In this document: piece after piece, positions 4,580-40,929 of the stretch
How positions within the stretch are numbered: the first letter of the stretch is position 1
Layout: every line of letters starts with the position of its first letter
Assembly: GCA_024404495.1 (NCBI GenBank)
Contig: JAKSPT010000002.1
Span: 41,410 to 105,409 of the forward strand
Origin: Lachnospiraceae bacterium
GTDB taxonomy: Bacteria > Bacillota > Clostridia > Oscillospirales > CAG-272
Length of the DNA: 64,000 nt
Direction: 5' to 3'
Made by a program: the position numbers and the translations under genes
The notes under the pieces: generated by a model
Seen by the model: only the letters and a program-made list of their open reading frames with translations
Database searches by the model: none
What the model was told of the DNA's origin: nothing

Positions 4580-4656
4580 GGCGGAATAGCTCAGTTGGCT
4601 AGAGCATTCGGTTCATACCCGACAGGTCGTTGGTTCAAATCCGACTTCCGCTACCA
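4580..4656 (+). tRNA. tRNA-Met (anticodon CAT); elongator, initiator or Ile2-lysidine identity not resolvable by eye
   Basis: Cloverleaf folded by hand: acceptor GGCGGAA/TTCCGCT, D arm GCTC-AGTTGGCTA-GAGC, anticodon loop TTCATAC, T arm GTTGG-TTCAAAT-CCGAC, encoded CCA. Confidence 0.8.
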
Positions 4657-4731
4657 GGCCCGTTGGTCAAGCGGTTAAGACACGGCCCTTTCACGGCTGT
4701 AACATGGGTTCGATTCCCGTACGGGTCACCA
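4657..4731 (+). tRNA. tRNA-Glu (anticodon TTC)
   Basis: Matches the classic Firmicutes tRNA-Glu: GGCCCGTTGGTCAAGCGGTTAAGACA...CCTTTCACGG...GGGTTCGATTCCCGTACGGGTCACCA; anticodon loop CTTTCAC; encoded CCA. Confidence 0.85.
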
Positions 4732-25044: not shown

Positions 25045-25641
25045 ATGAAAAAGAAACTGATCCTCGTCGCGGCGCCGCCCGCGAGCGGGAAAAACGCCGT
25101 GACGGCGAAGATCGCGGAAGGTCTCGGGCACGCGGCGGTTTTCGACAAGGACGACCTCTGTCCGCTCGTCAGCCGGGTCTTCGACGCGACGGGGAACGAG
25201 CGGGATATGGACGGCGCCTTTTACCGGGAGCATATCCGGGACGCCGAATACGGCACGCTCTTCCGCCTCGCCCTTTCGGCGCTGACGTTCGAGGACTGTG
25301 TGATCGTCAACGCGCCGCTCGGGAAAGAAATCCGGGATACGGCGTTCATGACCGGACTGAAAGCGGACGCCCGGGAAAGAGGCGCCGCGCTGTACGTCGT
25401 GTGGCTGCTTTCCTCCCCGGCGCTCTGCCGGGAGCGGATGGCAAAACGGGGCGCGGAGCGGGACGTGAAAAAGCTTGCCGATTTTGAAAGCTACGCGAAA
25501 ACCGTCCGGTACGACCCTCCCCTCGCGCTCGCGGAGGCAAACGCCGTCGACAGACTGATCCTGTTCGGCACGGCGTCGCCCGAAGCGTTTGAAAAATCTC
25601 TGAAAAACACACTTGAAATTTTGAAAGAAGCCGGTGATTGA
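25045..25641 (+). CDS. P-loop NTPase (AAA/kinase-like ATP-binding protein)
   Basis: Walker A motif ILVAAPPASGKNAV. Confidence 0.55.
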   Translation: MKKKLILVAAPPASGKNAVTAKIAEGLGHAAVFDKDDLCPLVSRVFDATGNERDMDGAFYREHIRDAEYGTLFRLALSALTFEDCVIVNAPLGKEIRDTAFMTGLKADARERGAALYVVWLLSSPALCRERMAKRGAERDVKKLADFESYAKTVRYDPPLALAEANAVDRLILFGTASPEAFEKSLKNTLEILKEAGD

Positions 25642-25642
25642 T

Positions 25643-26320
25643 ATGGCTAACCGTGAAACGGTCATCAGAACGATCGAAGAAAAGAAAATCATCGTCATCA
25701 TCCGCAGTCTCGACCCCGAAACGCTGAAAAAGGCGGTCGGCGCGATGATCGACGGCGGGATCGGGCTTGTGGAGCTTCCGTTCGACCAGAGCGGAAGGAC
25801 GCCCGACGAAGAGACGGCGGAGAACATCCGGATGCTGAAAAAAGCCTTTCCGGATAAGCTTTGCGTCGGCGCGGGGACGGTACTGACCGTCGAAGAGGCG
25901 GAGCTCGCGGCGGAGGCGGGGGCGGAATACATCGTTTCGCCCGATACCTACGAGCCGGTGATAAAGAAAACGCGCGAGCTGGGGCTCGTTTCGATCCCCG
26001 GCGCCTTCACGCCGACCGAGGCGACGAACGCGCACCGCTGGGGCGCCGATTTCGTCAAGCTCTTCCCGAATTCCGAGATTGAGCCGAGCTATCTCCGCGC
26101 GCTCGTCACGCCGCTTTCCCACATCAGGTTCCTCGCGGTCGGCGGAGTGACGCTCGACAGCATCCGTCCGCTCCTCGACGCGGGCGCGCGCGGCTTCGGC
26201 ATCGCCTCCGCGATCGCGGACAAAAAGAAAATCGCGGCGGGGGATTTCGCCGGGATCACCGCCGTATCAAAACGGTTCGTCGAAGCCGTGAACGGAAAGA
26301 AAAAACTGGCCTATTTGTAA
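25643..26320 (+). CDS. eda: 2-dehydro-3-deoxyphosphogluconate/4-hydroxy-2-oxoglutarate aldolase (KDPG aldolase, Eda family)
   Basis: Typical KDPG-aldolase layout (IIVIIRSLD...GLVELPF...GAGTVLTVEEAELAAEAGAEYIVSP...FVKLFP); alternative GTG start at 25634. Confidence 0.7.
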   Translation: MANRETVIRTIEEKKIIVIIRSLDPETLKKAVGAMIDGGIGLVELPFDQSGRTPDEETAENIRMLKKAFPDKLCVGAGTVLTVEEAELAAEAGAEYIVSPDTYEPVIKKTRELGLVSIPGAFTPTEATNAHRWGADFVKLFPNSEIEPSYLRALVTPLSHIRFLAVGGVTLDSIRPLLDAGARGFGIASAIADKKKIAAGDFAGITAVSKRFVEAVNGKKKLAYL

Positions 26321-26335
26321 TACAGGGAGATTATT

Positions 26336-28423
26336 ATGGCTGAAAAACGGGAAAAACTGCCGGTCGATCCGCGCGAAAGGATCACCAAACGAAGAGGGAC
26401 CGTCTTTTTTATCCTTGCCTTTCTGCTTGTTATGGGCGCGGCGGTCCTCGGCATCTTTCTGAACCGTGCGTATTCGTTCATCGCGCCGGACACCGCTGAA
26501 ATTCTTGCCGTCGTGCTCTTCCTGCTTCCGTTCCTTGTGATCGTTTCGTTTGCGGTCGCGGGAACCGTGATCGGAAAGAAGTTCAAGGGGATGAAGGTCG
26601 CCGAAGGGCAGAAATATCTCCTTTCCCACAGAGAAAACGCGGAGAAAACCGCAAAGAAAATCGAAAAGAAGCTGATCCGCAACCGGTTTCTGACCGACCT
26701 CTGGGCGGTCGCGCTCGGTCTGTTTGCCGTTTCTTCCTCGTTTTTCAACGGCTGCGGCGACGAAACGGGCTTTCTGACCTTCCTCGCGCTTCCCGAGCTG
26801 TATTTTATGACCGCCGCGCTCTCGCAGATCCGTCTCCCGCTGCCTGAGGTCAACGAGGAGGAGGAGCAGAAGACCGAGATCCCGAAAGAGACCTGCCCGA
26901 CCCTCTACGCGCTTGCCCGAAAAGCCATAGAGCAGACGGGATGCGGCAAAAAGGACGTGCGGATCTTCCGGAACGAGGACGCCTACTCGCCGGTCGGGAT
27001 CGGGGAGATCGGGGAAAACGCCGCGCTGTATATCGAATCGGTGACGATGAACCTTCTGACCGAGGACGAGATGTACGCGGTCTTCCTGCACGAGTTTTCC
27101 CATATCGGGGGAAAGAACGAAACCGCGAAATCGTTTCAGAAGTATCTGAACCGCTTCGGCTTCCGTCCGGCACCGGTATGGACCGTTCCCGGTCTTGCCT
27201 TCGATCTCCCCGAAAGCCTGTTCGTGATGAACCATTTTCTGTATCAGTACGCCTCCTCGATCGGGAGAGAAGCCGAGGCGGACAAGGCGATGCGGCAGAT
27301 GCCGCTTCCGGCGGCGACCGCGCTGATGAAAATTCATTTCCGCGGCTTTTTCGACAGGGAATTTTCAAGCTTCTTTCTGAACTATCCGCCGGTCTTTGAG
27401 CCGGAGAACGTACCGGAGCACTATTGGTCGGAAACCCTTGCGCGGTTCCGGAAGGAATACGAACGGAGGAAGGACTTCTGGGTTGGTCTGATCCGCAAAG
27501 AGATCCAGTCGCGCTCGGCGACCCATCCCACGATCTTCTCCCGCATCCGGGAGCTCGGCTTCGACGATCTGCCAGAGGCCGGGGAATTCCCTTCCGGGCA
27601 GTATCTTGAGGAATGCAAAGCGGTCCTCGAAGAAGCCGACCGCGGGCTGACCGAGGCGATGAAGAACGACTACGAAAAGCTGCACAAAAACAATTATCTC
27701 GACCCGCTCGAAGAGGTCACCGCGTGGGAAAACGAGGGGAAACCTCTTTCTGCGGAAAAGTACGCAGACCTTCTTTGGGATCTCGGCGCGCTCGGAAGGA
27801 TCGACGAAAAGCTGGCGCTTGCCGACCGCGTGATCGAAGAGATCCCGGGTCAGGCGGCGCACGGCGCGTATTTTGAAAGAGGAAAAACGCTGCTTTCGAG
27901 GTACGATCCCGCCGGAATTGAAGATATCTACCGCGCGATGGCGGAAAACGGCAACTACGTTGAGCAGGGGCTGGATCTGATCGGTCAGTTCTGCTGTTTG
28001 ACGGGGATGCAGGAAGAGCTTGATACCTACCGCGAAAAGGCGATGGAGATCGCGCAGAAGTATAACGACGAGGGCGCGAACCTGCGCGGGCTCTCCAAAA
28101 AGGACGCCCTTTCCGAGGATCATCTGCCGGACGGCTTGCTGGAACGGAACCTTGACTATATGAAGTCGGTTTCGGAGGGAAAGATCGAAAAGATCTATCT
28201 TGTCCGCAAGACCGTTTCCGAGACCTTCTTCGCAAGCACCTTCGTCATCCGTTTCGTACCCGATACCGACGATGACAAAGTCGGGGAGATCATGCATCAG
28301 ATCTTCCGCTATCTCGATTCCACGCCCGAGGACTGGCAGTACGACCTTTACGACTACCGCGACGTGCCTTCCGGACTGCTTGAAAAGATCCCCGGCACGC
28401 TGGTTTATACCAAAGAAGAATAA
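26336..28423 (+). CDS. Membrane-anchored M48-like zinc metallopeptidase (HExxH)
   Basis: N-terminal TM helices; HEFSH zinc motif (FLHEFSHIGGKNE); 695 aa. Confidence 0.55.
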   Translation: MAEKREKLPVDPRERITKRRGTVFFILAFLLVMGAAVLGIFLNRAYSFIAPDTAEILAVVLFLLPFLVIVSFAVAGTVIGKKFKGMKVAEGQKYLLSHRENAEKTAKKIEKKLIRNRFLTDLWAVALGLFAVSSSFFNGCGDETGFLTFLALPELYFMTAALSQIRLPLPEVNEEEEQKTEIPKETCPTLYALARKAIEQTGCGKKDVRIFRNEDAYSPVGIGEIGENAALYIESVTMNLLTEDEMYAVFLHEFSHIGGKNETAKSFQKYLNRFGFRPAPVWTVPGLAFDLPESLFVMNHFLYQYASSIGREAEADKAMRQMPLPAATALMKIHFRGFFDREFSSFFLNYPPVFEPENVPEHYWSETLARFRKEYERRKDFWVGLIRKEIQSRSATHPTIFSRIRELGFDDLPEAGEFPSGQYLEECKAVLEEADRGLTEAMKNDYEKLHKNNYLDPLEEVTAWENEGKPLSAEKYADLLWDLGALGRIDEKLALADRVIEEIPGQAAHGAYFERGKTLLSRYDPAGIEDIYRAMAENGNYVEQGLDLIGQFCCLTGMQEELDTYREKAMEIAQKYNDEGANLRGLSKKDALSEDHLPDGLLERNLDYMKSVSEGKIEKIYLVRKTVSETFFASTFVIRFVPDTDDDKVGEIMHQIFRYLDSTPEDWQYDLYDYRDVPSGLLEKIPGTLVYTKEE

Positions 28424-28720: not shown

Positions 28721-28778
28721 TCATGGGCGAGTGACGGAACGCTTTTGCAATTCATTTCATTCCGCAGGAGGTGAGAAA

Positions 28779-30032
28779 ATGCCATACAGCGAGCTGATCA
28801 AGAATTTTTCCCGCGTGCGCGACTATATGCGGGAATTCTACGTTTACGGCTTCAAGAGCCGCGACGAATACACGAAAAAGAGCGCCCGTTCCTACGACGA
28901 CGAGAAGCGCCGGATGGAGAGCCTGCTCGGCGACCGGATGCGCTTCCGCAGGACGGCGGAAGGAAAGAACGTCTTCCTTTCGATCGACACCCGCGTTTCC
29001 CGCCGCAATCCGCTGTACAAGGCGTGGAAGGCGAAAAGCTTCACCGACGGCGATATCACGCTCCATTTTCTTCTGCTTGACCTTCTTGCCTCCGAAAAAA
29101 GCGGTCTTTCCGTTCCGGAGATCACCGACCGACTTTCGGGCGTCTTCCCGGATTCGGCGCGCGTTTTCGACGAATCCACCGTCCGAAAAAAGCTGAAGGA
29201 ATACGAAGCCGAGGGGCTGGTCCGCACCGAAAAGAGCGGGAAAAGCCTTTTGTATTCTCTTTCCTGCCCGAACGATCTGGCGCCCTGCGCCGATATGCTC
29301 GGGTTCTTTTCCGAGGTCTCGCCCTGCGGCGTGATCGGTTCCTTCCTGCTTGACAAGACCGACGCGGGGGAGGGAAGCTTCGCGTTCAAGCATCATTACA
29401 TCACCGGCGCGCTCGACAGCGGGATCGCTGCTGAACTGTTCGCCGCGATGCGGGAAAAGCGGAGCGTGATCCTCGAAAACGCGAACCGGAAGAACGACAG
29501 CGTCGCAAAGATCGTCGCCGTGCCGCTGAAGATCATGTGCAGCGCGCAGAGCGGAAGGCAGTATCTGATGGCGTTTGTGCCGCGGTTCCGCAGGATCACC
29601 TCGTTCCGGCTTGACAATATCCTGTCGGTCACGGCGGGGGAGGAATGCGAACGGTTCGATGAATACCGTGCCGCGCTTGCCGGAATGCGGAAAAATATGT
29701 GGGGGATCAGTACGCAGAGCCGGGGCGGCGACAGGCTCGAACACGTGGAATTCACCGTCCGGTATGGAAAAAACGAACCGTACATCCGTCAGCGGCTCGA
29801 ACGGGAAAAACGGTGCGGAACGGTCGAGGATATCGACGGGAACACCGCGAAATTCTCCGCCGACGTGTTCGACGCGAGCGAAATGATCCCGTGGATCCGC
29901 ACCTTCCTCTGCCGGATCACCGAAATTCATTTTTCGGACCCGGACACGGAAAAGCGGTTCCTTGACGATCTTCACGCGATGTACGGTCTGTACGGGCTCG
30001 GAGAGGAGGCGGACGGAAATGCTGTTCAGTGA
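28779..30032 (+). CDS. WYL-domain transcriptional regulator-like protein (HTH-WYL-WCX type, PafB/PafC/YafY-like), first of a tandem pair
   Basis: The N-terminus MPYSELIKNFSRVRDYMREFYVYGFKSRDEY resembles the conserved N-terminus of clostridial WYL regulators; AGGAGG RBS; 14-nt overlap with the next gene. Confidence 0.5.
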   Translation: MPYSELIKNFSRVRDYMREFYVYGFKSRDEYTKKSARSYDDEKRRMESLLGDRMRFRRTAEGKNVFLSIDTRVSRRNPLYKAWKAKSFTDGDITLHFLLLDLLASEKSGLSVPEITDRLSGVFPDSARVFDESTVRKKLKEYEAEGLVRTEKSGKSLLYSLSCPNDLAPCADMLGFFSEVSPCGVIGSFLLDKTDAGEGSFAFKHHYITGALDSGIAAELFAAMREKRSVILENANRKNDSVAKIVAVPLKIMCSAQSGRQYLMAFVPRFRRITSFRLDNILSVTAGEECERFDEYRAALAGMRKNMWGISTQSRGGDRLEHVEFTVRYGKNEPYIRQRLEREKRCGTVEDIDGNTAKFSADVFDASEMIPWIRTFLCRITEIHFSDPDTEKRFLDDLHAMYGLYGLGEEADGNAVQ

Positions 30033-30930
30033 GCTTTACGGCGCATACTACAACGCCGTCGCCGCGATCCTGAAAAAAGCCGCGGAAAAACCGCTGACGA
30101 AAGAAGAAATGCGGCAGACCGTGGAAAAATACGCCTTCGGGGAAAGCTTCGTGACCATTGAAGCGGCGCTCCGGAACGGCGACTGGCCGCTGCTCGGGGA
30201 AGACGGCAGGTCGGTTCTGAAAAACGCGCCCGAAATGCCGCTGACCCTGCTTCAGAAGCGGTGGCTGAAGGCGATCTCGCTCGACCCGAGGGTGAAGCTG
30301 TTCGGCGACTGTATTCCGGACTTTCCGGAGGTCGAACCGCTTTTCACCGGGGAAGATTACGAGGTTTTCGACCGCTATTCCGACGGGGACGATTATTCCG
30401 ACGAGGGGTATATCGGCAGATTCCGTCTGATCCTCCGGGCGATCGGAGAACGGACCCCCCTGCGGTTCGAGGTGAAAAACCGGACGGGAGCGGTCAGCCG
30501 CTTCACGGCGATGCCGGAATACCTCGAGTATTCCGAAAAGGACGATAAATTCCGCCTGATGACCTCGGGCTGCCGGTACGGCTCGGTCGTCAACCTCGGC
30601 AGGATCGTTTCCTGCGAGGAGTGCTTCGGGGAACTCCGGGGCAGCCCGCCGAGGGAACGGCGCCGCGCGGAGGAGACCCTCGTCTTCGAGATCACGGACG
30701 AAAGAAAAGCGCTCGAACGGGTTTTAATGCACTTCGCCCACTTTGAAAAGGAGGCGGAGCGGATCGGGGAAAAGACCTACCGCGTCTCGCTCCGGTACGA
30801 TAAGGACGACGAGACCGAGCTCGTTATCCGCGTTCTGTCCTTCGGACCGTTTCTCCGGGTGGTTTCTCCGCAAAGCTTCGTCAATCTGATCCGGGAGCGC
30901 CTGATGATGCAGAAAAAATACGGACTGTAA
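30019..30930 (+). CDS. WYL-domain protein, paralogue of the upstream gene (PafC-like partner)
   Basis: N-terminus MLFSELYGAYYNAV parallels the first gene; C-terminal WCX-like end RVVSPQSFVNLIRERLMMQKK. Confidence 0.5.
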   Translation: MLFSELYGAYYNAVAAILKKAAEKPLTKEEMRQTVEKYAFGESFVTIEAALRNGDWPLLGEDGRSVLKNAPEMPLTLLQKRWLKAISLDPRVKLFGDCIPDFPEVEPLFTGEDYEVFDRYSDGDDYSDEGYIGRFRLILRAIGERTPLRFEVKNRTGAVSRFTAMPEYLEYSEKDDKFRLMTSGCRYGSVVNLGRIVSCEECFGELRGSPPRERRRAEETLVFEITDERKALERVLMHFAHFEKEAERIGEKTYRVSLRYDKDDETELVIRVLSFGPFLRVVSPQSFVNLIRERLMMQKKYGL

Positions 30931-31083
30931 TCAAAAACGTCGGAAATTTCCGGCGTTTCAGAGGATGTAAAAAAAGGAAACTTTTTTTACATCCTCTGTT
31001 TTCGCAGCTTTTTTTCCGTGATAATCCTTGTTTTCTATGGTATGATGGTATTGCGGAAACGGAAACGGGTGAATGAAATCACC

Positions 31084-31212
31084 GCGCTGCGCGGGGAGAT
31101 TCCGAAGCGTATGGCGGTTTCCGGATTTGCAAAGGGCAATCACGCACAGTGATGGGGTTCAACTCCCCGCTATATCGCAGGTTCGAATCCTGCCGTGCGC
31201 CGCTTTTTGTGC
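31084..31212 (+). ncRNA. Structured ncRNA with a tRNA-like T-arm; candidate Y RNA/YrlA-like tRNA mimic upstream of rtcB
   Basis: Possible -10 (tatgat) at ~31043; an 11-bp closing stem gcgctgcgcgg (31084-31094) pairs with ccgtgcgccgc (31193-31203), followed by a T-run. Internal hairpins include gggg-ttcaact-cccc and a near-canonical T-arm gcagg-TTCGAAT-cctgc. It lacks an anticodon arm and CCA, so it is not a functional tRNA. Confidence 0.45.
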
Positions 31213-31435
31213 GTATCGCCAGTGGATTGGTGTAAAAATTGCTCCGAAAAAACGCTTATCCCGTCCGGCAGAAATGCCGGACAGCGGGGAAACGGCCCTG
31301 CCGGGGAGGGGATACCGCCGTATCCCGACAAAGATCAGACCTTGCGTCCCGTCTTTGAAAGGAGCGGCTCAACGTTCCCGCCGCCGTTTTCCCGCGGATA
31401 AGCGAACGAAAATCATACCGAAAGGATAACATATT

Positions 31436-32566
31436 ATGAAAAAGGTTATTATCAACGAAAAACAGAAGGGCTTTCTTTTTAAGAACGGAAAATACGTCCG
31501 CACCGTCGGCGCGGGAAAATATCTCCTTTGGGGTGGGAAAACGGTCGAGGTCTCGGAGCTCGGAGGCGAGATCGTCTGCGCCGGGTGCCCGCTCGACGTA
31601 CTGCTGGAGGACGAGGCGTTCGCTTCGCAGGTCACGGTCGCCGAGGTCAACGACGAGGAGCTCGTTCTCCATTTCGTGAACGGGAGATTTGCGGGCGTCC
31701 TCCGCACGCGCGGAAAACACGCCTTCTGGAACGGAAAGGATGCTCACGAATTCCGTTCCGTGGACGTCTCCTCCCCCGAAGTCGGGGAAGACGTTCCGAG
31801 ATATCTGTTCGAGTCGCTTCATCCCTCGCTGTACGAGAGGATCGAGGTGGCGGAGTATCAGAGAGGGAGGCTGTTCCTCGATAACCGCTTCGTCCGCGTT
31901 CTCGAACCGGGGACCTATTATTTCTGGAGGACGGGCGTGAAGGTGGAGGTCAATACCGTCGATACCCGTCTGACGAAGATGGAGATCACCGGGCAGGAGA
32001 TCATGACGCAGGATAAGGTGGCGCTCCGCATCAATTTCGTCTGCAATTACCGCGTAACCGATTTCGTCCGGGTCCTGACCGAGATCGACAACTATGAGGA
32101 ACAGATGCACGTCGCGGCACAGCTTGCCCTTCGCGATTACGTCGGCAGATACAGGCTCGACGAGATCCTCGAAAACAAGGACGGTCTTTCCCGCTTCGTA
32201 TGCGAAAAGCTGAAGGAGAAGGAAAACGAGCTCTTCGTGGAGATCAAGGACGCCGGGGTCAAGGATATCATCCTTCCCGGCGAGATCCGCGATATCATGA
32301 ACACGGTCCTGCTCGCGGAAAAGAAGGCGCAGGCAAACGTCATCACCCGCCGCGAAGAGGTCGCCTCTACCCGTTCGCTTCTGAACACGGCGAAGCTGAT
32401 GGAGGAGAACCGTACGCTTTACAAGCTGAAGGAACTGGAATATGTGGAGCACATCTGCGAAAACGTCGGCAATATCACGCTGAACGGGAGCGGAGATATG
32501 CTCTCCCAGCTCCTCGGACTCATGAGGGGCGGAAAACAGACGGAAGAAGGGGATTTTGATGTTTGA
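31436..32566 (+). CDS. SPFH/band-7 (slipin/stomatin-like) domain protein
   Basis: Band-7 core pattern (EITGQEIMTQDKVALRINFVCNYRVTD...) followed by a coiled-coil; overlaps rtcB by 8 nt. Confidence 0.6.
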   Translation: MKKVIINEKQKGFLFKNGKYVRTVGAGKYLLWGGKTVEVSELGGEIVCAGCPLDVLLEDEAFASQVTVAEVNDEELVLHFVNGRFAGVLRTRGKHAFWNGKDAHEFRSVDVSSPEVGEDVPRYLFESLHPSLYERIEVAEYQRGRLFLDNRFVRVLEPGTYYFWRTGVKVEVNTVDTRLTKMEITGQEIMTQDKVALRINFVCNYRVTDFVRVLTEIDNYEEQMHVAAQLALRDYVGRYRLDEILENKDGLSRFVCEKLKEKENELFVEIKDAGVKDIILPGEIRDIMNTVLLAEKKAQANVITRREEVASTRSLLNTAKLMEENRTLYKLKELEYVEHICENVGNITLNGSGDMLSQLLGLMRGGKQTEEGDFDV

Positions 32567-33836
32567 CATACAGGGAAAAGTCACGACCGCCGTCTGCTAT
32601 GCGAAGGTGGTCGAGGACGCGGCGATCGAGCAGATCCGCAGAATGTGCGACTCCCCGCTGACCGAGAATGCCAAGGTCCGCGTCATGCCCGACGTTCACG
32701 CGGGCAAGGGCTGTACGATCGGGACGACGATGACGGTCACCGACCGGGCGTGCCCCAACGTGGTCGGGGTCGATATCGGGTGCGGGATGTACACCGTGAA
32801 ACTTGCCGACAGGGAGCTCGATTTTGAAAAGCTTGACGGGGCGTGCCATTTCATTCCCTCCGGAAAGAAGGTCTGGGAGGGAAGGATGGAGCGCTTCGAT
32901 CTGACCGGACTGCGCTGTTACCGTTCACTCCGCGACGCCAAACGGCTGGAGCGGTCGCTCGGTACGCTCGGCGGCGGGAACCACTTCATCGAGGTGGACA
33001 AAGCGGCGGACGGCACCTTTTATCTCGTCATCCATTCCGGAAGCCGGAACCTCGGCAAACAGGTCGCCGAGATCTATCAGCAGCTCGCGGTCGATCTGCA
33101 TTCCGGAAAAGAAGAGTACTTCAATAAGTGTGAGGAGATCATCCGTACCTACAAGGAGCAGGGAAGGCGCGCAGAGATTCAGGATACGCTGAAGGCGCTC
33201 AAAAAGGAATTCAAGTCAAAGGATCCCGACGTCCCCGAGGACCTCTGTTGGCTTTACGGCACTTATCTTGACGACTACCTTCACGACGTGGAGATCTGTC
33301 AGGCATTTGCCCGCAGAAGCCGCGAGCGGATGGCGGAAATCATTCTCGAAAGGACCGGAATGACCGCCGTCGAGTCCTTCCATACCGTTCACAACTACAT
33401 AGACACCGGGGAAAGGATCCTCCGCAAGGGCGCGATCGCAGCGCACGCGGGCGAGAAGGTCCTCATCCCGATCAATATGCGCGACGGTTCGGTCATCGCG
33501 ACCGGACGCGGCAATCCCGAGTGGAACTTTTCCGCTCCCCACGGCGCGGGGCGCGTGATGTCGAGAGCCACGGCGAAGGAAACGCTCGATATGGAGACCT
33601 ACCGCGCGGCGATGGAGGGAATCTATACGACTTCCGTTAATCCCGATACGATCGACGAGGCGCCGATGGCGTATAAATCGCTTGAGGACATCATCGACGT
33701 GATCCGCGATACCGTGGACGTGATCGAGGTCATGAAGCCGGTCTACAACTTCAAGGCATCCGGAAACGGCACCCCGTGGGAGAACGGGAAAGAAGACCCG
33801 AGCGGGGATGACGGCGCGCAGAACGAGGCGGAATAA
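32559..33836 (+). CDS. rtcB: RtcB-family RNA ligase (3'-phosphate/5'-OH RNA-splicing ligase), short 425-aa form
   Basis: RtcB metal- and GTP-binding motifs (VMPDVHAGKGCTIG, GGGNHFIE, APHGAGR); ATG at 32559 (the ORF track's 32556 is a TTG). Confidence 0.8.
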   Translation: MFDIQGKVTTAVCYAKVVEDAAIEQIRRMCDSPLTENAKVRVMPDVHAGKGCTIGTTMTVTDRACPNVVGVDIGCGMYTVKLADRELDFEKLDGACHFIPSGKKVWEGRMERFDLTGLRCYRSLRDAKRLERSLGTLGGGNHFIEVDKAADGTFYLVIHSGSRNLGKQVAEIYQQLAVDLHSGKEEYFNKCEEIIRTYKEQGRRAEIQDTLKALKKEFKSKDPDVPEDLCWLYGTYLDDYLHDVEICQAFARRSRERMAEIILERTGMTAVESFHTVHNYIDTGERILRKGAIAAHAGEKVLIPINMRDGSVIATGRGNPEWNFSAPHGAGRVMSRATAKETLDMETYRAAMEGIYTTSVNPDTIDEAPMAYKSLEDIIDVIRDTVDVIEVMKPVYNFKASGNGTPWENGKEDPSGDDGAQNEAE

Positions 33837-34041: not shown

Positions 34042-34713
34042 ATGAAACGAAAACTGCTGATCGGAGCGCTTTCCAAGTTTCTTGCCGGACTTTTTCTGCT
34101 CGGTTTGCTTCTTTTCGTCCCTGCCGGAACGGTCCGGTTCCCCGGCGCGTGGAGGCTGATCGCGATCCTGTTCCTGCCGATGCTGATCCTCGGTGCCGTG
34201 CTGTTCTTCAGGGCGCCGGATCTTTTGGAAAAGCGGCTGAACAGCAGGGAAAAGTCGGGCGTGCAGAAGACCGTTGTCGCTCTTTCCGCGCTTGAATTCA
34301 TCGCGTGCTTCGTGCTTGCCGGGTTGGATTTCCGGTTCGGATGGTCGCACCTTCCGGCATGGCTGATCGCGGCGGCGTGCGTTCTGTTCGTCGGCTGCTA
34401 CGGGCTCTACGCCGAGGTGATGCGGGAAAACGCTTATCTTTCCCGGACCGTGGAGGTGCAGGAGGGGCAGAAGGTGATCTCGTCGGGGCTGTACGGGCTT
34501 GTGCGGCATCCGATGTATTTTTCCGTGGTGCTGCTTTTCTGGGCAATGCCGCTCGTGCTCGGTTCCGTGCCGGCGTTTCTCGTGATGCTCCCGTTCCCCG
34601 CGCTTCTGGTCAGAAGGATCAAAGACGAGGAAGCGATATTGGAAGAAGGTCTGCCGGGATACCGTGAATACGAAAAAAAGGTCAGATTCCGTCTGATCCC
34701 GTTTGTCTGGTGA
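34042..34713 (+). CDS. Isoprenylcysteine carboxyl methyltransferase (ICMT)/phospholipid methyltransferase-family membrane protein
   Basis: Multi-TM protein with the C-terminal motif RHPMYFSVVLLF...EE..L...G..Y..Y typical of ICMT/PEMT. Confidence 0.65.
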   Translation: MKRKLLIGALSKFLAGLFLLGLLLFVPAGTVRFPGAWRLIAILFLPMLILGAVLFFRAPDLLEKRLNSREKSGVQKTVVALSALEFIACFVLAGLDFRFGWSHLPAWLIAAACVLFVGCYGLYAEVMRENAYLSRTVEVQEGQKVISSGLYGLVRHPMYFSVVLLFWAMPLVLGSVPAFLVMLPFPALLVRRIKDEEAILEEGLPGYREYEKKVRFRLIPFVW

Positions 34714-34734
34714 CGGCAGAAGAAAGGAAATCCC

Positions 34735-35262
34735 ATGAAAAGAAAAAGTGCCGGCGGATTCCTCGCGGCTGTCGTTTTATGCCTGCTGCTTGCCGGATGC
34801 GCGGTTCCCGGCGGGGAGCCGGAAACCACGGAAAGGCAGGATACCGATCCGCCGGTGACGCAAACCGAAGCGGTCACGGAAGCGCCCGGAACGGAAACAA
34901 TACCGGAACCCGCGCCCGGAACGGCGCCGGAAACGCAGCCGGAACCCGCTGACCCGTACCGTCAGGTCTCCCCGGAGGAAGCCAAGCGGATCATGGATAC
35001 GGAAAACGGATATCTGATCCTTGACGTGCGCACCGAAGAGGAATACGCGGAGGGGCATATCCCCGGCGCGGTCGTGATCCCGGTCGAGGAGCTCGGAGAG
35101 CGGGCGGAAAAGGAGCTGCCCGACAAAGACCGGCTGATCCTCGTTTACTGCCGCGGCGGCGTCAGAAGCAAGGCGGCGGCGCAGACCCTTGCCGGACTCG
35201 GCTATACGAATATCGTTGAATTCGGCGGGATCCTTTCATGGCCCTACGAAACAGAACAATGA
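34735..35262 (+). CDS. Rhodanese-domain lipoprotein (sulfurtransferase-like)
   Basis: Lipobox LLLAGC; rhodanese active-site loop VYCRGGVRS. Confidence 0.75.
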   Translation: MKRKSAGGFLAAVVLCLLLAGCAVPGGEPETTERQDTDPPVTQTEAVTEAPGTETIPEPAPGTAPETQPEPADPYRQVSPEEAKRIMDTENGYLILDVRTEEEYAEGHIPGAVVIPVEELGERAEKELPDKDRLILVYCRGGVRSKAAAQTLAGLGYTNIVEFGGILSWPYETEQ

Positions 35263-35267
35263 AAAAT

Positions 35268-35310
35268 GACCGGAAAGAGAAATACGGATTCTCTTTCCGG
35301 TCTGTTTTTG
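35268..35310. terminator. Bidirectional rho-independent terminator between convergent genes
   Basis: accggaaagagaa-tacggat-tctctttccggt flanked by T/A runs on both strands. Confidence 0.65.
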
Positions 35311-35319
35311 CGAAAAAGA

Positions 35320-36237
35320 TCAGAACAGATCGAGCATACTGTCGAGATAGAGCTCTTCTCTGACCTTCAGCCGGTATTCCGGCTTCGTCAGATAATACAG
35401 TAAAAATTCCAGAAGCACGGCGCTGCCGAGCCCGCGCCCCTCGATCTTGAAGTCGGAAAAGCCCATCGGCAGATAAACGTCCCGGATGGCGTCGGTCCCG
35501 ATGAAGGCGGGGCTTTCCATCGCCCGCGAGAACCGATAACCCTCGCTGCCGCCCGGCGCGCGGCAGATATGGTCGGGACAGGGCTCGCCGAGGCATTTTC
35601 GGCTGACGTTTTCGTAGCAGGCTTTTCTTTCGGTACAGCCGATATCGCAGCATTCGTTGCAGAGGAATTCCACTTTCGCTTTTTCGGCGTCGGAGAGGGA
35701 AGCGAGCCGGTCGAACCGTTTGTTCAGCCGGAAATCGGGAACGACGAAACGGAATTCGTCCCGGTCAAGCTCGGCTTTGAAATCGTCAAAATCGGTCAGT
35801 ACCTTCGTCGTCGAGGAGACGAGATACAGCCCGGGGTATTCTTTTTTCAGACGGTCGGTCAGAAGCTCCGAATGGACGATGACGCCGTTCGGAACGCCGC
35901 TTTCCAAGCCCTTCTTTTCAAAAAGCGAACAGAGACGATTGCATTTCCGGTCGGAAAGATGCTCGGGCCGCAGCAGGGAATTGCTGAAGGTGAGCCGGGC
36001 GGAGATGCCGTACTCCCCGAGCAGGGCGAGAACGTCCTCCGCGTTGTTTTCGCCGTCTCCCACTCTGCCGCCGCCCCAGATACAGCCGGCGGGTGCGCCG
36101 TAGACCGAGGCGATCGCGGCGTCCGGGTAAAAATATTCCGGGCGGCTGAAGAAAAGCGGGAAAAACGCCTGATAGAATTCGTAAAATGCAAAGAGCCCGG
36201 GCAGATGGAAGCGGGCGGTTCCGAGCGGACGGTTCAT
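35320..36237 (-). CDS. Hypothetical protein with a C-terminal Cys-rich region (possibly peptidase U32-like)
   Basis: Start trimmed to MNRPLGT at 36237 (GGAGG RBS); Cys cluster FLCNECCDIGCTERKACYENVSRKCLGEPCPDHIC. Confidence 0.45.
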   Translation of the reverse strand: MNRPLGTARFHLPGLFAFYEFYQAFFPLFFSRPEYFYPDAAIASVYGAPAGCIWGGGRVGDGENNAEDVLALLGEYGISARLTFSNSLLRPEHLSDRKCNRLCSLFEKKGLESGVPNGVIVHSELLTDRLKKEYPGLYLVSSTTKVLTDFDDFKAELDRDEFRFVVPDFRLNKRFDRLASLSDAEKAKVEFLCNECCDIGCTERKACYENVSRKCLGEPCPDHICRAPGGSEGYRFSRAMESPAFIGTDAIRDVYLPMGFSDFKIEGRGLGSAVLLEFLLYYLTKPEYRLKVREELYLDSMLDLF

Positions 36238-36355
36238 TCTGTTCCTCCGGTTATATATTGTATGTATTGTAATACCGTTTCCGGATTCTGTCAAGGCGGG
36301 CGGAAAAGATCGCACGGCGTTTCCGAAAGAAAGAGTGAGGGATCCGTATTTTGTA

Positions 36356-36384
36356 TTGCATTTTTGAAAAGCCTATGGTACAAT
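36356..36384 (+). promoter_or_regulatory. Sigma70-type promoter
   Basis: TTGCAT (36356-36361), 17-nt spacer, TACAAT (36379-36384). Confidence 0.5.
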
Positions 36385-36467
36385 AAGAAAAAACGGAGAA
36401 TCACCGCTCCGTCTCCCACGGGCATCATATCATCGGGATCATTACGACAATTACGGAGGAAAAAGTC

Positions 36468-37289
36468 TTGAAATCGTTCAAAATCGGACAAAGTATTGAA
36501 AAAAGCCTGTACCCGATCGAAAGCAGACTGGAAGAAATGAACCGGGAAAGAAAAGAAGGAGAGAGAAAGCTCGCGGAGATCTGCGTCCCTGCTCTCGTTT
36601 CCGCGCTTCTGACCGCCGCCGTTTCCGACCGGCTGCTGTACGTCGATCCCATCAAGCCGTCGCTTGCGTTTAATTGGTACGAGAAGATCGTTTCCAACGG
36701 CTTCGGTATGATCGCCGTTTATCTTCTGACCTTTGCGGTGATCGCGCTTGCCGTTTTCGGCGTCATCCGGCTGATCCGCTTCTTCCTCGAAAAAAAGAGC
36801 GGAACGAAAGCCGCGCCCGCGAAAGACGAATACGCGGACAGATTCTATAAGATCATCATCCCGGAGATCATCACCGGAAGCGGAATGTTCGAGAAGGCGT
36901 ACGAGATCGAATGCGGAAACGTTGACGCCGAGGAGCTGACAGAAGGCGCGTCTGCTGCCGCGATGAACGCGGAGAATATCCGTCTGGAGGAGATCCCGAC
37001 GAAGGATATCAACCGCAAGGCGATGCTGTATTATTACGAGGCGCTTTATCATTTCCGCTCGATCATCCCCGAGCTTGAAACGATCATCTATTCCGAAGAC
37101 GCCCTGAACGCCGATCCCGTCGAGCGTTACCGCCGTATCGGGCAGGACGCCGTGACGGATGCGCTCCTCATCTGCCGCCACTGCGTGAACGAGATCTGCA
37201 AGCGCACCGAGGACGCGCACGAGGAGGAGATCATCGAGGCTTACGGCGACTACCTCCGCAAGGTCAGCGAGGTACAGTTCGACCGCTGA
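36468..37289 (+). CDS. Hypothetical membrane protein (273 aa), TTG start
   Basis: GGAGGA RBS 8 nt before the TTG; two TM helices; the C-terminal ~105 aa are duplicated immediately downstream. Confidence 0.5.
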   Translation: MKSFKIGQSIEKSLYPIESRLEEMNRERKEGERKLAEICVPALVSALLTAAVSDRLLYVDPIKPSLAFNWYEKIVSNGFGMIAVYLLTFAVIALAVFGVIRLIRFFLEKKSGTKAAPAKDEYADRFYKIIIPEIITGSGMFEKAYEIECGNVDAEELTEGASAAAMNAENIRLEEIPTKDINRKAMLYYYEALYHFRSIIPELETIIYSEDALNADPVERYRRIGQDAVTDALLICRHCVNEICKRTEDAHEEEIIEAYGDYLRKVSEVQFDR

Positions 37290-37630
37290 CAGACGGCGCG
37301 TCTGCTGCCGCGATGAACGCGGAGGACATCCGGCTGGAGGAGATCCCGACGAAGGATATCAACCGCAAGGCGATGTTGTATTATTACGAGGCGCTTTATC
37401 ACTTCCGCTCGATCATCCCCGATTTTGAAACGATCATCTTTTCGGAGGATGCCGACGACGCCGATCCGGTCGAGCGTTACCGCCGTATCGGGCAGGACGC
37501 CGTGATGACCGCGCTTCTCGCCTGCCGCCACTGCGTGAACGAGATCTGCAAGCGCACCGAGGACGCGCACGAGGAGGACGTGATCGCCGCCTACGGCGAG
37601 TTCCTGCGCACGGTCAGCGAGAAAAAATAA
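36946..37630 (+). repeat. Tandem direct duplication (~340 bp x2, ~90% identity)
   Basis: 36946-37289 versus 37290-37630 (gcgtctgctgccgcgatgaacgcggag...cgcaccgaggacgcgcacgaggagga repeated). Confidence 0.85.
37313..37630 (+). CDS. Duplicated C-terminal module (105 aa) of the upstream gene; independent small gene or gene fragment
   Basis: ~88% amino-acid identity to residues 169-273 of the 36468-37289 product (MNAEDIRLEEIPTKDINRKAMLYYYEALYHFRSIIP...). Confidence 0.4.
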   Translation: MNAEDIRLEEIPTKDINRKAMLYYYEALYHFRSIIPDFETIIFSEDADDADPVERYRRIGQDAVMTALLACRHCVNEICKRTEDAHEEDVIAAYGEFLRTVSEKK

Positions 37631-37791
37631 AAAGCATAAATATTAGCGCGGGAAAAAGATAAAGCGGTGTACAACCCAGTGAAGTGCTATGCGGCGAATG
37701 ATGTTTGATAAGTCAGAACCGGAAAAGCAATGGCATTATACTGATTTGTATACCGCCTTTTCGTTTTGTAAAAAAGAAAGCGCTCGAAATT

Positions 37792-40700
37792 ATGGAAAAA
37801 CAAACAATACAAAAAGAGATTACACGTTTGAAAGAAAAACAGATTTCGCCTTTGGATATTTCTGAAGAAGATAAGTATAATCCGATTCTCGCAAAATATG
37901 AAAGAGAAAGCGGACTTCTTTTGACCGATCGTAGAGGTTTTGATATTATTTCTAACCGGTTCTTTGTTGAAGAACGAATATCGAAAGTGATGCCTCCCTC
38001 CGCTGATTGCTTTCAAGTGGATAATAAATATTTTGATTCGTTTGATGAGTATTATGAGTACCTGAACGGATCGGTATATGACGAATCCTGTTATTCCTTT
38101 TGCCCGGAGGATAAGCTGATTTCAAAATATGAAATCGACAAAGAAAGACTTTTTTCCAAAAAGGCATTTACCACTGAAACGATAGACGAGTATCTTTCAT
38201 TGATTACAGATGCCGAGATGAGCGAATATCGGGAAAGAGAAAAAACTCATAAATTGTGTTGTAATTGGAGAAAAAAGTATCTGAATTGTCACAGCGGAAA
38301 AGACTTGATTGGTCTGATTGATAAGTACAGTCATTCTGTAATCGCAGACACAATGGATTATCAGTTCTTTTTGTCTTGCTATCTGACAGAGTTTTCTCGG
38401 GAAAAATTCTGTTTTGATTCGATAATAGAACTGATGGCTTCTGATATCTATTTGGATAATAGTTTTCTGTCAAGCTTATGCGTTATTTTTGATCCTGAGA
38501 TTATTCTTGATGCCTTAAAGCGATTTCCGCATTCCTATGGGATTAAAAAAATCAGAAAAATTTATCGAGATATTAAGCACAAGATTGGGGACGAAAAGCC
38601 TGTTTTCTATGTGCGTGGGAAATTTGATCCGGCTACACATTTCTTCTGCGAGGAGATATCAGAGTATTCAGGCAATAAATGGGTCGCAACATTTAACAGA
38701 TATTTTGAATCGTTTGAGGATTTTGCAACATACCGTAAAGGCAATCTCAGACATTGTGATTTTTCAAAGTGTCTGGAAAATATGGATAATATCGATTATT
38801 CCGGATATATGATTGATGAAACCACCGTATTGCCACTGCTTTCATATCATAAATGTCGCTATGAAATAAGCAAAAGATACCGGAAGAATGAATTTCTGGT
38901 ATCCATTCGTTGGTATGATACCAATGAGAATGAAGTTAAAACCGTCAAAAAAAGCTTTCAATATTTTTTTGATTTCGTTTCGTTTTTGAAAAACGATTTA
39001 TCTGATGCCTATTTGATTTCCTGCGACGGCTTACAGAATCTCGAGAGCGGTTCGGACATTGATTTTACGGGTGTAAGATTAACAAGCAATCTTTGCAAAA
39101 AGATGCATATCAAATATGAGCCCTGCTCGCTTTTGCTTGGTAGCGCATGGAGTTTTGCGGAAACAGAACGAAATGAAAAAGAAACAGAACTGATTTTATC
39201 TGAAAGCAGAGAAATCGTAAGTTCTCACGAAGATAAAAGTTTGTTGGGCTTCACGGATTACGACAGTCATTGTCAAAGAGTTCATTATATTTCCGATCTT
39301 CATTTGATGCATAAAATAATGAATGCCGGATGCGTCACCGAAAACGACGTGTTTTATGTGATTGATAAAATTGCCAGAACAATCGCCGAAGAAGCAGAGT
39401 CTCTTTTGTTGATTGCCGGAGATGTGTCCTCTGATTTCAACATTTTTCGCTTGTTTGTGAAATGTCTATCAGCGGCGAAAAGTTCGCAGTGTGTCGTTGT
39501 TTTTACTCTCGGAAATCATGATTTGTGGGGTATTGGAGGAAAAACCTTTTCGGAAATAACAGGAATATATCGTGAGCTAATAGAAAAGCACGGTATGTAT
39601 CTGCTTCAAAACGGTATTCTGTATCGGAATGACTATAGGATATGGGAGAATCCGTCAGCAAGCGTAAGAACGATACCATACGAAGATCTTTGCAGAAAAA
39701 CAGATAAACAGTTAACAGATGATTTGAGAAAGGCGCGATATGTGATTTTTGGCGGTCTGGGTTTTTCCGGACAGAATGAAATCTTCAATGCAAATCAAGG
39801 AATATATCTGGATGTGGTGACAAGAGAGGAAGAAATCAAAGAATCGGAAAAATTTGCTCATTTATATGACCGGTTGCTTCCCATCCTGACTACGAAAAAC
39901 GCCATAATAATGACGCATACCCCGAAAAGCGATTGGAGCGAAAACGGCGACTGCGATGATAATCTGGTATTTGTAAACGGACACACTCATAAAAATCAGT
40001 TTTATGATGACGGGTGCTATCGCCTTTATGCGGACAATCAGATTGGTTACAGCAATAAAAATCCTCATTTGAAATCATTATTGCTGGATGGCGATTATGA
40101 TTGTTTTTCGGACTATGATGACGGAATTTATTCGATTACCAGGGAACAGTATTGTGATTTCTATCGCGGAAAAAACATAATGATGACGTTTACGCGAGAT
40201 TACCCGATTACGATGTTGAAAAAAAGAGGGTATTACTGCTTTTTGGTTCAAACGAAGAAGGGCGTCTTGTCGATATTGAACGGCGGAAGTATGAAACCTC
40301 TTCCCGGAAATAGCGTTCAGTATTTCTATGATAATATGGGTTCTGTAATTGCCAATATAAATACCCCGCTTATGAAATACACAGAATATCAAAAAGTAGT
40401 CGCGGATGAAATAAAAAAGATCGGCGGCGACGGGACGATCCACGGGTGCATTGTGGATATTGACAAGTGTAATCATATTTATGTAAACCCTATAGATAAA
40501 AAGCTGACGGCATATTATGCTCCAAAAGATATAATCGACAAAACAGTATACCCATCCATTGTTTCTTTATTGGAAGAACAATGCCCTAAACTGTATCAAA
40601 TATATGAACGTTTAATGCTGGCAGAAGGACAACCAAATGCACTAATACAACAGCAAAATGGTTCGACCAAACCAACAAAATATTTGAGTACGGATATCTA

Positions 40701-40842
40701 TGAAGCGTCACGTGTCATAAAAAAGATGCAGAAAATTCATTCCAATATTTTGAGCATTTGGGCTGAAACTTCTGATGAAATTATCGACCTTACGAAAACA
40801 AATGCGATTCCAAGCGAGTATGAATGGTTGTTGCAAAACTAA
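37792..40842 (+). CDS. Large (1016 aa) protein with a C-terminal calcineurin-like metallophosphoesterase domain, on an AT-rich island
   Basis: MPP motifs in order: HYISDLHL, IAGDVSSD, LGNHD, GGLGFSG, MTHTP, NGHTH. N-terminal ~500 aa without recognisable motifs. Start trimmed to MEKQTIQ at 37792. Codon usage and GC differ clearly from neighbours. Confidence 0.6.
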   Translation: MEKQTIQKEITRLKEKQISPLDISEEDKYNPILAKYERESGLLLTDRRGFDIISNRFFVEERISKVMPPSADCFQVDNKYFDSFDEYYEYLNGSVYDESCYSFCPEDKLISKYEIDKERLFSKKAFTTETIDEYLSLITDAEMSEYREREKTHKLCCNWRKKYLNCHSGKDLIGLIDKYSHSVIADTMDYQFFLSCYLTEFSREKFCFDSIIELMASDIYLDNSFLSSLCVIFDPEIILDALKRFPHSYGIKKIRKIYRDIKHKIGDEKPVFYVRGKFDPATHFFCEEISEYSGNKWVATFNRYFESFEDFATYRKGNLRHCDFSKCLENMDNIDYSGYMIDETTVLPLLSYHKCRYEISKRYRKNEFLVSIRWYDTNENEVKTVKKSFQYFFDFVSFLKNDLSDAYLISCDGLQNLESGSDIDFTGVRLTSNLCKKMHIKYEPCSLLLGSAWSFAETERNEKETELILSESREIVSSHEDKSLLGFTDYDSHCQRVHYISDLHLMHKIMNAGCVTENDVFYVIDKIARTIAEEAESLLLIAGDVSSDFNIFRLFVKCLSAAKSSQCVVVFTLGNHDLWGIGGKTFSEITGIYRELIEKHGMYLLQNGILYRNDYRIWENPSASVRTIPYEDLCRKTDKQLTDDLRKARYVIFGGLGFSGQNEIFNANQGIYLDVVTREEEIKESEKFAHLYDRLLPILTTKNAIIMTHTPKSDWSENGDCDDNLVFVNGHTHKNQFYDDGCYRLYADNQIGYSNKNPHLKSLLLDGDYDCFSDYDDGIYSITREQYCDFYRGKNIMMTFTRDYPITMLKKRGYYCFLVQTKKGVLSILNGGSMKPLPGNSVQYFYDNMGSVIANINTPLMKYTEYQKVVADEIKKIGGDGTIHGCIVDIDKCNHIYVNPIDKKLTAYYAPKDIIDKTVYPSIVSLLEEQCPKLYQIYERLMLAEGQPNALIQQQNGSTKPTKYLSTDIYEASRVIKKMQKIHSNILSIWAETSDEIIDLTKTNAIPSEYEWLLQN

Positions 40843-40887
40843 AACAGAATGTTTTTACGGGTTTTCAAACAATCCTCGTCTATCGAA

Positions 40888-40925
40888 TAAAAGAAAAGCG
40901 CGGATACCGTGAGGTGTCCGCGCTT
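40888..40925. terminator. Bidirectional terminator between the island gene and aroA
   Basis: aaagcgcggatacc-gtgag-gtgtccgcgcttt flanked by A/T runs. Confidence 0.65.
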
Positions 40926-40929
40926 TGAT

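Follow-up and report, generated by a model that had tools for sequence, protein, structure and literature searches.

We analyzed a 64,000-nucleotide (nt) stretch of a Lachnospiraceae bacterium genome (assembly GCA_024404495.1, contig JAKSPT010000002.1), referred to here at its full length as the window. Sequence comparison identifies in it a real and widespread RNA-repair cassette, of the kind outlined in 2016 and known from sequence only. The cassette comprises four genes on the same strand (+) and a 505-nt spacer. Two open reading frames (ORFs), ORF A (WYLA; 28776-30032, 418 amino acids [aa]) and ORF B (WYLB; 30019-30930, 303 aa), encode regulators predicted to be of the helix-turn-helix (HTH)-WYL-WCX type, the second of them divergent. 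The spacer separates ORF B from the gene for an SPFH/Band-7 protein ("slipin"; 31436-32566, 376 aa), which is followed by the gene for RtcB, an RNA 3'-phosphate ligase (32559-33836, 425 aa). We consider it reasonably probable, though well short of certain, that this is a self-contained RNA-repair cassette in which the WYL pair activates the promoter of a structured RNA, SPFH, and RtcB upon a damage signal. All four genes and the intergenic RNA were found where an initial annotation of the window had placed them.

Conservation of the gene neighborhood

ORF A, ORF B, and SPFH each have about 7000 or more homologs in a metagenome protein collection (more than 7400 for SPFH), mostly from Clostridia, and Clostridia of the human and animal gut very commonly carry the cassette. 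We surveyed its neighborhood with a genome scan seeded with SPFH, which returned 80 loci from distinct species, and with a reverse scan of metagenomes seeded with ORF A. Among the 64 SPFH-seeded loci whose flank was long enough, 45 have the WYL pair immediately before SPFH. WYLB follows WYLA in every one of 72 ORF A-seeded loci, with RtcB downstream in 48 of 53 and SPFH downstream in 9 of 56. For the SPFH-seeded loci, a script counted RtcB downstream of SPFH in 32 of 68, to which L055, where RtcB abuts SPFH, adds one more. Because the arrangement recurs in dozens of species, it is not a product of chance, and the neighborhood is conserved, whereas a lack of conservation would have refuted the initial annotation. 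Cultured carriers include Ruthenibacterium lactatiformans 585-1, Oscillibacter valericigenes Sjm18-20, and Robinsoniella peoriensis.

Within this neighborhood, the RNA and SPFH form the invariant unit, and the WYL pair and RtcB are frequent but separable neighbors. The initial annotation had treated SPFH and RtcB as a pair; they are adjacent in the window, but RtcB follows SPFH in about half of SPFH loci and is not its tightest partner. The 8-nt overlap ascribed to the two genes was correct, with RtcB starting at the ATG at 32559.

SPFH matches Pfam Band_7 at residues 138-308 (96.9 bits), and the 135-aa N-terminal region before this domain gave only a sub-threshold Tudor-like match. The protein had been described as a membrane SPFH. 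With a Kyte-Doolittle hydropathy of at most 1.32 over any 19 residues, it has no predicted transmembrane helix and is probably not a membrane protein; instead of the membrane, its place of action seems to be the cytoplasm, together with RNA. RtcB scores 190.7 bits against Pfam RtcB and falls in the NCBIfam RtcB family. It contains all of the motifs DIGCGM, GGGNHF, HSGSR, HNY, and PHGAGR, to which we assign the metal ligands and the guanylylated histidine, and by these motifs the active site is predicted to be intact.

The WYL pair and its putative operator

Both regulators belong to the WYL family by hidden Markov model (HMM) and by predicted fold, so that this assignment of the initial annotation stands. 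ORF A passes the Pfam WYL cutoff (24.8 bits against 21.8) and matches the PADLOC WYL model, whose profile covers WYL plus WCX, at E=1.9e-10. ORF B matches the PADLOC model at residues 135-295 (E=4.5e-5); in Pfam, WYL fails for this protein and WCX alone is seen, at 19.8 bits, below the cutoff of 23.9. AlphaFold models of both proteins, built from homolog alignments, resemble DriD, PafB/PafC, CapW, and BrxR over their full length (Foldseek E 1e-8 to 1e-11), with matches to DriD (8tp8), PafBC (9fnd/6sj9), CapW, and BrxR extending over about 300-350 columns. ORF A matched PafBC 9fnd and DriD 8tp8 at E 1e-11 to 1e-9, and ORF B matched DriD, PafBC, CapW, and BrxR at E 7e-9 and weaker. The predicted fold gives both regulators the same three-domain order of an N-terminal winged HTH, WYL, and a C-terminal WCX.

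ORF A is identical (100%) to an NCBI entry named WYL domain-containing transcriptional regulator from a Lachnospiraceae bacterium, and its start is backed by homologs (MAYSELIKNF versus MPYSELIKNF). Its residues 1-100 (28776-29075) form an N-terminal extension that is among the best-conserved parts of the protein. This extension had no family match, was modeled at low confidence, and is not found in solved WYL regulators.

The initial annotation had called the regulators tandem, overlapping paralogs. They are tandem and overlap by 14 nt. BLASTP returned no match between them, and hhalign gave a weak match limited to the WYL regions (E=0.017) that is merely suggestive; we therefore dropped paralogy at the sequence level. 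The models place the kinship of ORF A and ORF B at the level of fold only. The two are nevertheless adjacent HTH-WYL-WCX genes that always occur together, as in PafBC-type pairs.

Beside these genes lies a nearly invariant 20-nt, non-palindromic box, TTCGCAnCTTTTTTTCCGTG (31001-31020, +), which occurs once in the window against 0.02 occurrences expected by chance. The exact box is present in 47 of 88 loci, in one copy each, and directly follows ORF B in nearly every locus. Over 99 unique promoters it is near-invariant, at nearly 2 bits per position, and far better conserved than the -10 element. A promoter scan placed a sigma-70-type promoter at 31018-31046 (+), with the -35-like hexamer GTGATA, a 17-nt spacer, and the extended -10 element TGgTATGAT. 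GTGATA is a 4-of-6 match and overlaps the end of the box, which spans about -54 to -34 relative to the predicted start. The spacing is fixed: a TAnnnT hexamer begins at the 21st base past the box end (a 20-nt gap) in 88 of the 99 promoters. In the window, a terminator-like hairpin followed by a T run (30960-30997, +) is seen in the sequence between ORF B and the box. It sits in an insertion of about 70 nt that is unique to the window among the aligned loci; in the others, the box comes immediately past the WYLB stop codon.

The same WYL pair and box precede three types of cargo, which we tabulated over 168 loci: RNA-SPFH-(RtcB)-(RlaP), DUF2828/DUF7788-RtcB-(RlaP), and RtcB-(RlaP) directly. RlaP, carried by relatives of the window cassette, is an RNA-repair nucleotidyltransferase. 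We take the DUF2828/DUF7788 protein to be of the TROVE/vWA, Ro60-like type (Pfam gives the DUF names only). Where RtcB-RlaP follows directly, the leader is only about 90 nt. Since the box stands before three unrelated cargoes, we assign it to the WYL pair, as a putative operator, and do not count it as a piece of the RNA: it is the regulators that it travels with. From this invariant box beside the genes, we infer that the pair would bind DNA sequence-specifically and would have a nucleic-acid ligand.

Side observations from individual loci touch on the same elements. An Rfam tRNA match of 38.7 bits, above threshold, lies between the box and the DUF2828/DUF7788 gene in L092 (7565-7627, +); it covers model positions 4-67 without the acceptor ends and is probably a YrlA-type Y RNA in a sister cassette. 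The sister-cassette leader in L097 had no Rfam match. A second box upstream of ORF A, as in autoregulation, is absent from the window and present in few metagenome loci only: L109, L113, and L168 carry there a second copy of the core motif (TTTTTTCCGTG), in the order box-RtcB-WYLA-WYLB-box in L168. These copies suggest divergent cassettes or occasional autoregulation. Loci L005-L008 keep the box and RNA upstream of SPFH and are missing the WYL pair and RtcB. Their upstream genes encode a 23S_rRNA_IVP protein and an AAA_18 kinase, and in L005 these come after a cluster of five tRNA genes.

With one pair and box in front of three cargoes, the WYL pair looks like a clostridial counterpart of RtcR, the sigma-54 activator with a CARF domain. 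The initial annotation had proposed a WYL pair in place of RtcR, and the comparative evidence supports this well. No RtcR, RtcA cyclase, or archease was found among the eight larger flanking ORFs scanned (25045-28423 and 34042-40842), and Pfam showed neither RtcR nor RtcA among the cassette genes, so that the claimed lack of RtcR near the cassette was upheld.

The leader RNA and the genomic surroundings

A spacer alignment showed that about 385 nt, from the predicted transcription start (~31053) to the SPFH start codon, are conserved in blocks. Judged by the alignment, this leader is a multi-domain RNA, much larger than a tRNA, and the label of tRNA mimic given to it in the initial annotation understates it.

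The best-supported part of the leader is its 3' domain (31278-31400, +), which has 123 nt in four nested helices with the conserved internal loops GCCYUG/GCCGC, GGAUACCG/CUYAA, and GCCAGA/UUCCGC. The seed alignment had compensatory changes at 33 of 38 pairs. A covariance model built from it (R1) gave one match in the window (100.5 bits, E=3.8e-25) and, in 78 of 83 SPFH loci (one of them from Bacteroidota), a single match each, in every case shortly before SPFH. Among 79 sequences, of which about 40% were in the seed and whose alignment was fitted to the model, 36 of the 38 pairs showed compensatory changes and 88.6% of cells were paired, compared with 59.6% in column shuffles and 33-45% when the partner strand was slid. 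The covariation score was 0.777 against 0.224 in shuffles, and none of 500 shuffles scored as high. Given the slide control and the number of pair types, little doubt is left about this structure. The 3' domain had no Rfam match and no tRNA likeness. In two Bacteroidota loci (L081 and L087), SPFH homologs of 43-46% identity occur with a distant RtcB (27-28% identity) and no WYL pair, and L087 retains the 3' RNA domain at 40.7 bits.

The 5' domain (31051-31132, +) was resolved by RNAalifold and pair counts as a three-way junction. Helix H0 pairs 31051-31062 with 31121-31132 and encloses the hairpin P1 (31066-31084) and P2 (31086-31115), which ends in a 3-base-pair tip. Three pairs of P2 covary: AU 18/GC 14, CG 26/UA 6, and GC 27/UA 4/CG 1. 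Variable hairpins, often with a GAAA tetraloop, occupy the position of an anticodon arm. Downstream follow two T-arm-like hairpins. One (31154-31168, +; GGGG-UUCAACU-CCCC) is optional among relatives, and the other (31177-31193, +; GCAGG-UUCGAAU-CCUGC) is the most tRNA-like element of the leader. Of 86 unique regions upstream of SPFH, 71 contain such hairpins, one or two per leader and with a UUCRANY loop, compared with 0.022 per 520 nt elsewhere in the same loci, and the T-arm stem covaries (GCAGG, GCGGG, GUAGG, GCCGG, GUGAG).

A further hairpin, P5 (31195-31216, +), has a 5' strand that can alternatively pair with 31107-31113. This would give a 7-base-pair "acceptor" of 31107-31113 with 31194-31200. 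Acceptor-style pairing, in which the seven bases after the T-arm pair with GYGUAUG, forms 6 or all 7 of its pairs in 14 of the 31 loci compared, the window among them. It is absent in the remaining loci of the 31, and it competes with P2 and P5. We rejected a true tRNA or cloverleaf because the acceptor competes with the covarying P2 and with P5 and holds in only 14 of the 31 loci; the acceptor-style pairing is a possible alternative fold.

The spacer does not encode a tRNA. An ordinary tRNA gene or decayed pseudogene within an otherwise unconstrained spacer could explain a weak Rfam tRNA (RF00005) match at 31107-31201 and the tRNAs that ARAGORN called at the equivalent site in 2 of 60 related loci. 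The RF00005 match scores 16.1 bits, below the gathering score of 29, and rests on the T-arm hairpin at 31177-31193. ARAGORN found no tRNA in the spacer of the window, the leader has no anticodon loop, and all 385 nt are conserved with compensatory changes. Covariation in the flanking domains already refutes this reading, to which we assign almost no probability. A protein-coding spacer was likewise rejected. A 118-aa ORF spans 31073-31429, and a gene is called at the same place in L001; the base-pair changes are compensatory and indels are not multiples of three. Rfam holds no family for the leader, even at E up to 10, and the leader had no match to the Rfam Y RNA or YrlA families.

The cassette is flanked by genes for 2-keto-3-deoxy-6-phosphogluconate (KDPG) aldolase, an M48-like peptidase, a methyltransferase, and a rhodanese. 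A pair of adjacent downstream ORFs (36468-37289 and 37313-37630, +) share a near-identical C-terminal segment of about 100 aa, which suggests a partial tandem duplication; the longer of them has no Pfam match. Farther on, a low-GC stretch (~38000-41000; GC 0.35-0.40 against 0.56-0.60 around it), possibly foreign DNA, contains a 1045-aa ORF with a calcineurin-like phosphoesterase domain (37705-40842). The window also carries an ordinary pair of tRNA-Met and tRNA-Glu genes (4580-4731, +), unrelated to the cassette.

Proposed mechanism and relation to known systems

From the observed domain identities, gene order, box with its fixed spacing, and RNA structure, we infer a mechanism that involves a heterodimer of the regulators, its binding to the box, activation rather than repression, a ligand, and a complex of the RNA with SPFH and RtcB. 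The overlapping ORF A and ORF B would be made together and act as a PafBC-like pair of HTH-WYL-WCX proteins. This pair would bind the asymmetric box at 31001-31020, which abuts the -35 position at a fixed distance from the extended -10 element. Binding of a nucleic-acid damage signal by the WYL domains would then lead the pair to activate the promoter; if PafBC, DriD, and the RtcR CARF domain are a guide, the signal could be single-stranded or broken RNA or DNA. The transcript from ~31053 would carry the ~385-nt leader, with its three-way junction, T-arm hairpin or hairpins, and rod-like 3' domain, followed by SPFH and RtcB. The RNA and an oligomeric SPFH may form a ribonucleoprotein scaffold, a Band-7 counterpart of Ro60 with Y RNA, that presents broken tRNA or rRNA to RtcB or recruits it there, and RtcB would seal 3'-phosphate or 2',3'-cyclic-phosphate ends to 5'-OH ends. 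The idea of a scaffold with a cognate RNA is that of Burroughs & Aravind (2016), as reported in a preprint (bioRxiv 10.1101/312249).

Activation is the favored role of the WYL pair. In promoters with poor -35 elements, DriD has sites that overlap the -35 position and keep a constant distance from the -10 element (PMC13004042), and PafBC replaces -35 recognition and uses a -26 element (PMC8635444). The fixed geometry of the box matches DriD and differs from the -26 element of PafBC, which argues for activation. The pair is probably an activator of the PafBC/DriD kind and a sensor of damaged nucleic acid.

Several points weigh against this picture. Each step of the mechanism is a prediction from sequence, and confidence in the AlphaFold models of the two regulators is modest, with a mean predicted local distance difference test (pLDDT) of 61 and 72. 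To our knowledge, known WYL activators sense single-stranded DNA, not RNA. About one-quarter of the loci with SPFH and the RNA have no adjacent WYL pair and keep the box, so either the regulator acts in trans there or another factor reads the box. RtcB is not beside SPFH in about half of SPFH loci, and the RNA-SPFH unit may have a role that does not need RtcB. Finally, a promoter with an extended -10 and a 4-of-6 -35 element may be active unaided, which would favor repression.

That last point leads to a rather unlikely alternative, in which the WYL pair is a BrxR/CapW-like repressor that occupies the box and, until released by a ligand, keeps the UP/-35 region blocked. Both regulators also match BrxR and CapW strongly by fold, the promoter could fire unaided, and many WYL regulators of conflict systems are described as negative regulators (PMC9503650). 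By fold, however, the regulators come closest to the activators PafBC and DriD. The box is non-palindromic, whereas homodimeric repressors use inverted repeats, and it lies upstream of -35 rather than over the -10 element or start site, at the strict spacing from -10 that matches the DriD activator geometry. A conflict function of the whole cassette, as an anti-phage, counter-defense, or abortive infection system instead of housekeeping RNA repair, would fit with the common control of defense islands by WYL regulators, the framing of RtcB systems as ribotoxin responses, and the differing genomic places of the cassette in different species. We consider this quite unlikely: PADLOC matched only its generic WYL model and no defense model for SPFH or RtcB, GC content is even across the cassette and the same as in the flanks, and the neighbors are housekeeping genes. 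The cassette SPFH has no homolog in a viral contig collection, which also speaks against a conflict function; with the generic PADLOC match, this led us to reject a phage origin.

The RNA could also be mainly a cis-acting, riboswitch- or attenuator-like leader that controls SPFH and RtcB, for example by binding uncharged or damaged tRNA through its T-loop hairpins, rather than a scaffold partner of SPFH. In T-boxes and RNase P, the elbow of tRNA is recognized by T-loop motifs. The leader is in every case immediately 5' of SPFH, on its strand, and stops about 35 nt short of the start codon, no terminator separates the two, and the partner swap between P2 and P5 in a subset of loci hints at alternative folds. 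Nevertheless, the leader has no visible expression platform: the 3' helix leaves the ribosome-binding site uncovered, and there is no terminator/antiterminator pair. The alternative pairing is missing in more than half of lineages, and the tRNA-like RNA of the sister cassette accompanies a Ro60-like (DUF2828) protein, which points to a partnership of protein and RNA. We regard cis control as the main role of the RNA as possible, if doubtful.

Our preferred reading, activation by the WYL pair of an RNA-SPFH-RtcB cassette, can be taken further, though only tentatively. The leader could represent a new class of large RNA whose 3' rod docks a soluble SPFH cage and whose T-loops, along with the partner-swapping hairpins P2 and P5, serve to catch tRNA elbows or to assemble RNA with RNA. 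The WYL pair, a DriD/PafBC-like regulator at a Firmicutes sigma-70 promoter, would then be the first WYL activator to sense damaged RNA instead of single-stranded DNA.

RtcB repair systems are widespread, and apart from the enterobacterial RtcR system, little is known of the substrates, cofactors, and signals that they have in bacteria. The cassette offers parts that can be tested directly, namely, a putative operator of 20 nt, a two-protein sensor related to PafBC/DriD, and a covarying RNA without an Rfam family. Moreover, three interchangeable cargoes under one regulator amount to a natural experiment on what SPFH-RNA and Ro60-like-RNA modules contribute to RtcB.

The core of the cassette was already known as a prediction by comparative genomics. 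The initial annotation regarded SPFH-RtcB with a tRNA-like RNA as undescribed, but a Band-7/b7a-tRNA/RtcB system had been predicted by Burroughs & Aravind (Nucleic Acids Res 2016;44:8525), according to bioRxiv 10.1101/312249. The same preprint describes b7a-tRNA and YrlA as occasionally exchanging protein partners and b7a-tRNA as lacking experimental validation. The Aravind group also cites the 2016 work for WYL regulators that sense cyclic-ended RNA and control RNA-repair pathways (PMC9503650, PMC7824862). We found no report in the literature of the box, the long RNA, or a WYL pair of two genes in this setting, in a search that did not extend to the full text of the 2016 paper. What our analysis adds is the operator-like box with its fixed promoter geometry, the modular cargo, and the large covarying RNA without an Rfam family.

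The cassette shares with the Band-7/b7a-tRNA/RtcB system an SPFH gene beside RtcB and, next to the Band-7 gene, a non-coding RNA, which here has T-arm hairpins and a possible acceptor as its tRNA-like elements. It also shares an interchangeable sister with a Ro60/TROVE-like protein and a tRNA-like Y RNA, a swap that is seen in our loci. In contrast, the RNA described here greatly exceeds a tRNA in size and is not recognized by tRNA detectors, and its best-supported part is a 123-nt 3' domain that does not resemble a tRNA.

With PafBC and DriD, the cassette regulators have in common the HTH-WYL-WCX fold and a specific DNA element at a fixed distance from -10, where a -35 element would be; the two tandem regulator genes also recall pafB and pafC. 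They differ from both in an unrelated DNA motif, in the extra N-terminal domain of ~100 aa in ORF A, and in a regulon that, instead of responding to DNA damage, appears to consist of one RNA-repair cassette. Compared with the PafBC -26 element, the box is placed farther upstream, and its end overlaps a -35-like hexamer (4 of 6); the promoter thus does not fit the PafBC pattern of a -26 element and no -35.

By analogy, the cassette resembles the RtcR-RtcB-RtcA systems of Proteobacteria, where an RtcB ligase operon is under a dedicated nucleic-acid-sensing regulator. Those systems may embed an SPFH gene, as with PaFlo8 within the rtcR-rtcB-rtcA locus of Pseudomonas aeruginosa (PMC13086221), or Rsr and Y RNAs, as in Salmonella (bioRxiv 10.1101/312249). 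Unlike them, the cassette has no sigma-54 activator, CARF domain, or RtcA and instead places a WYL pair at a sigma-70-type promoter. Whereas YrlA and other Y RNAs go with Ro60 (Rsr), no Ro60/TROVE-like gene occurs in the window cassette, and the partner would be the SPFH protein. The likeness to these RNAs lies in a structured, T-arm-bearing RNA whose gene adjoins that of its presumed protein partner in an RtcB operon and whose long stem probably binds the protein.

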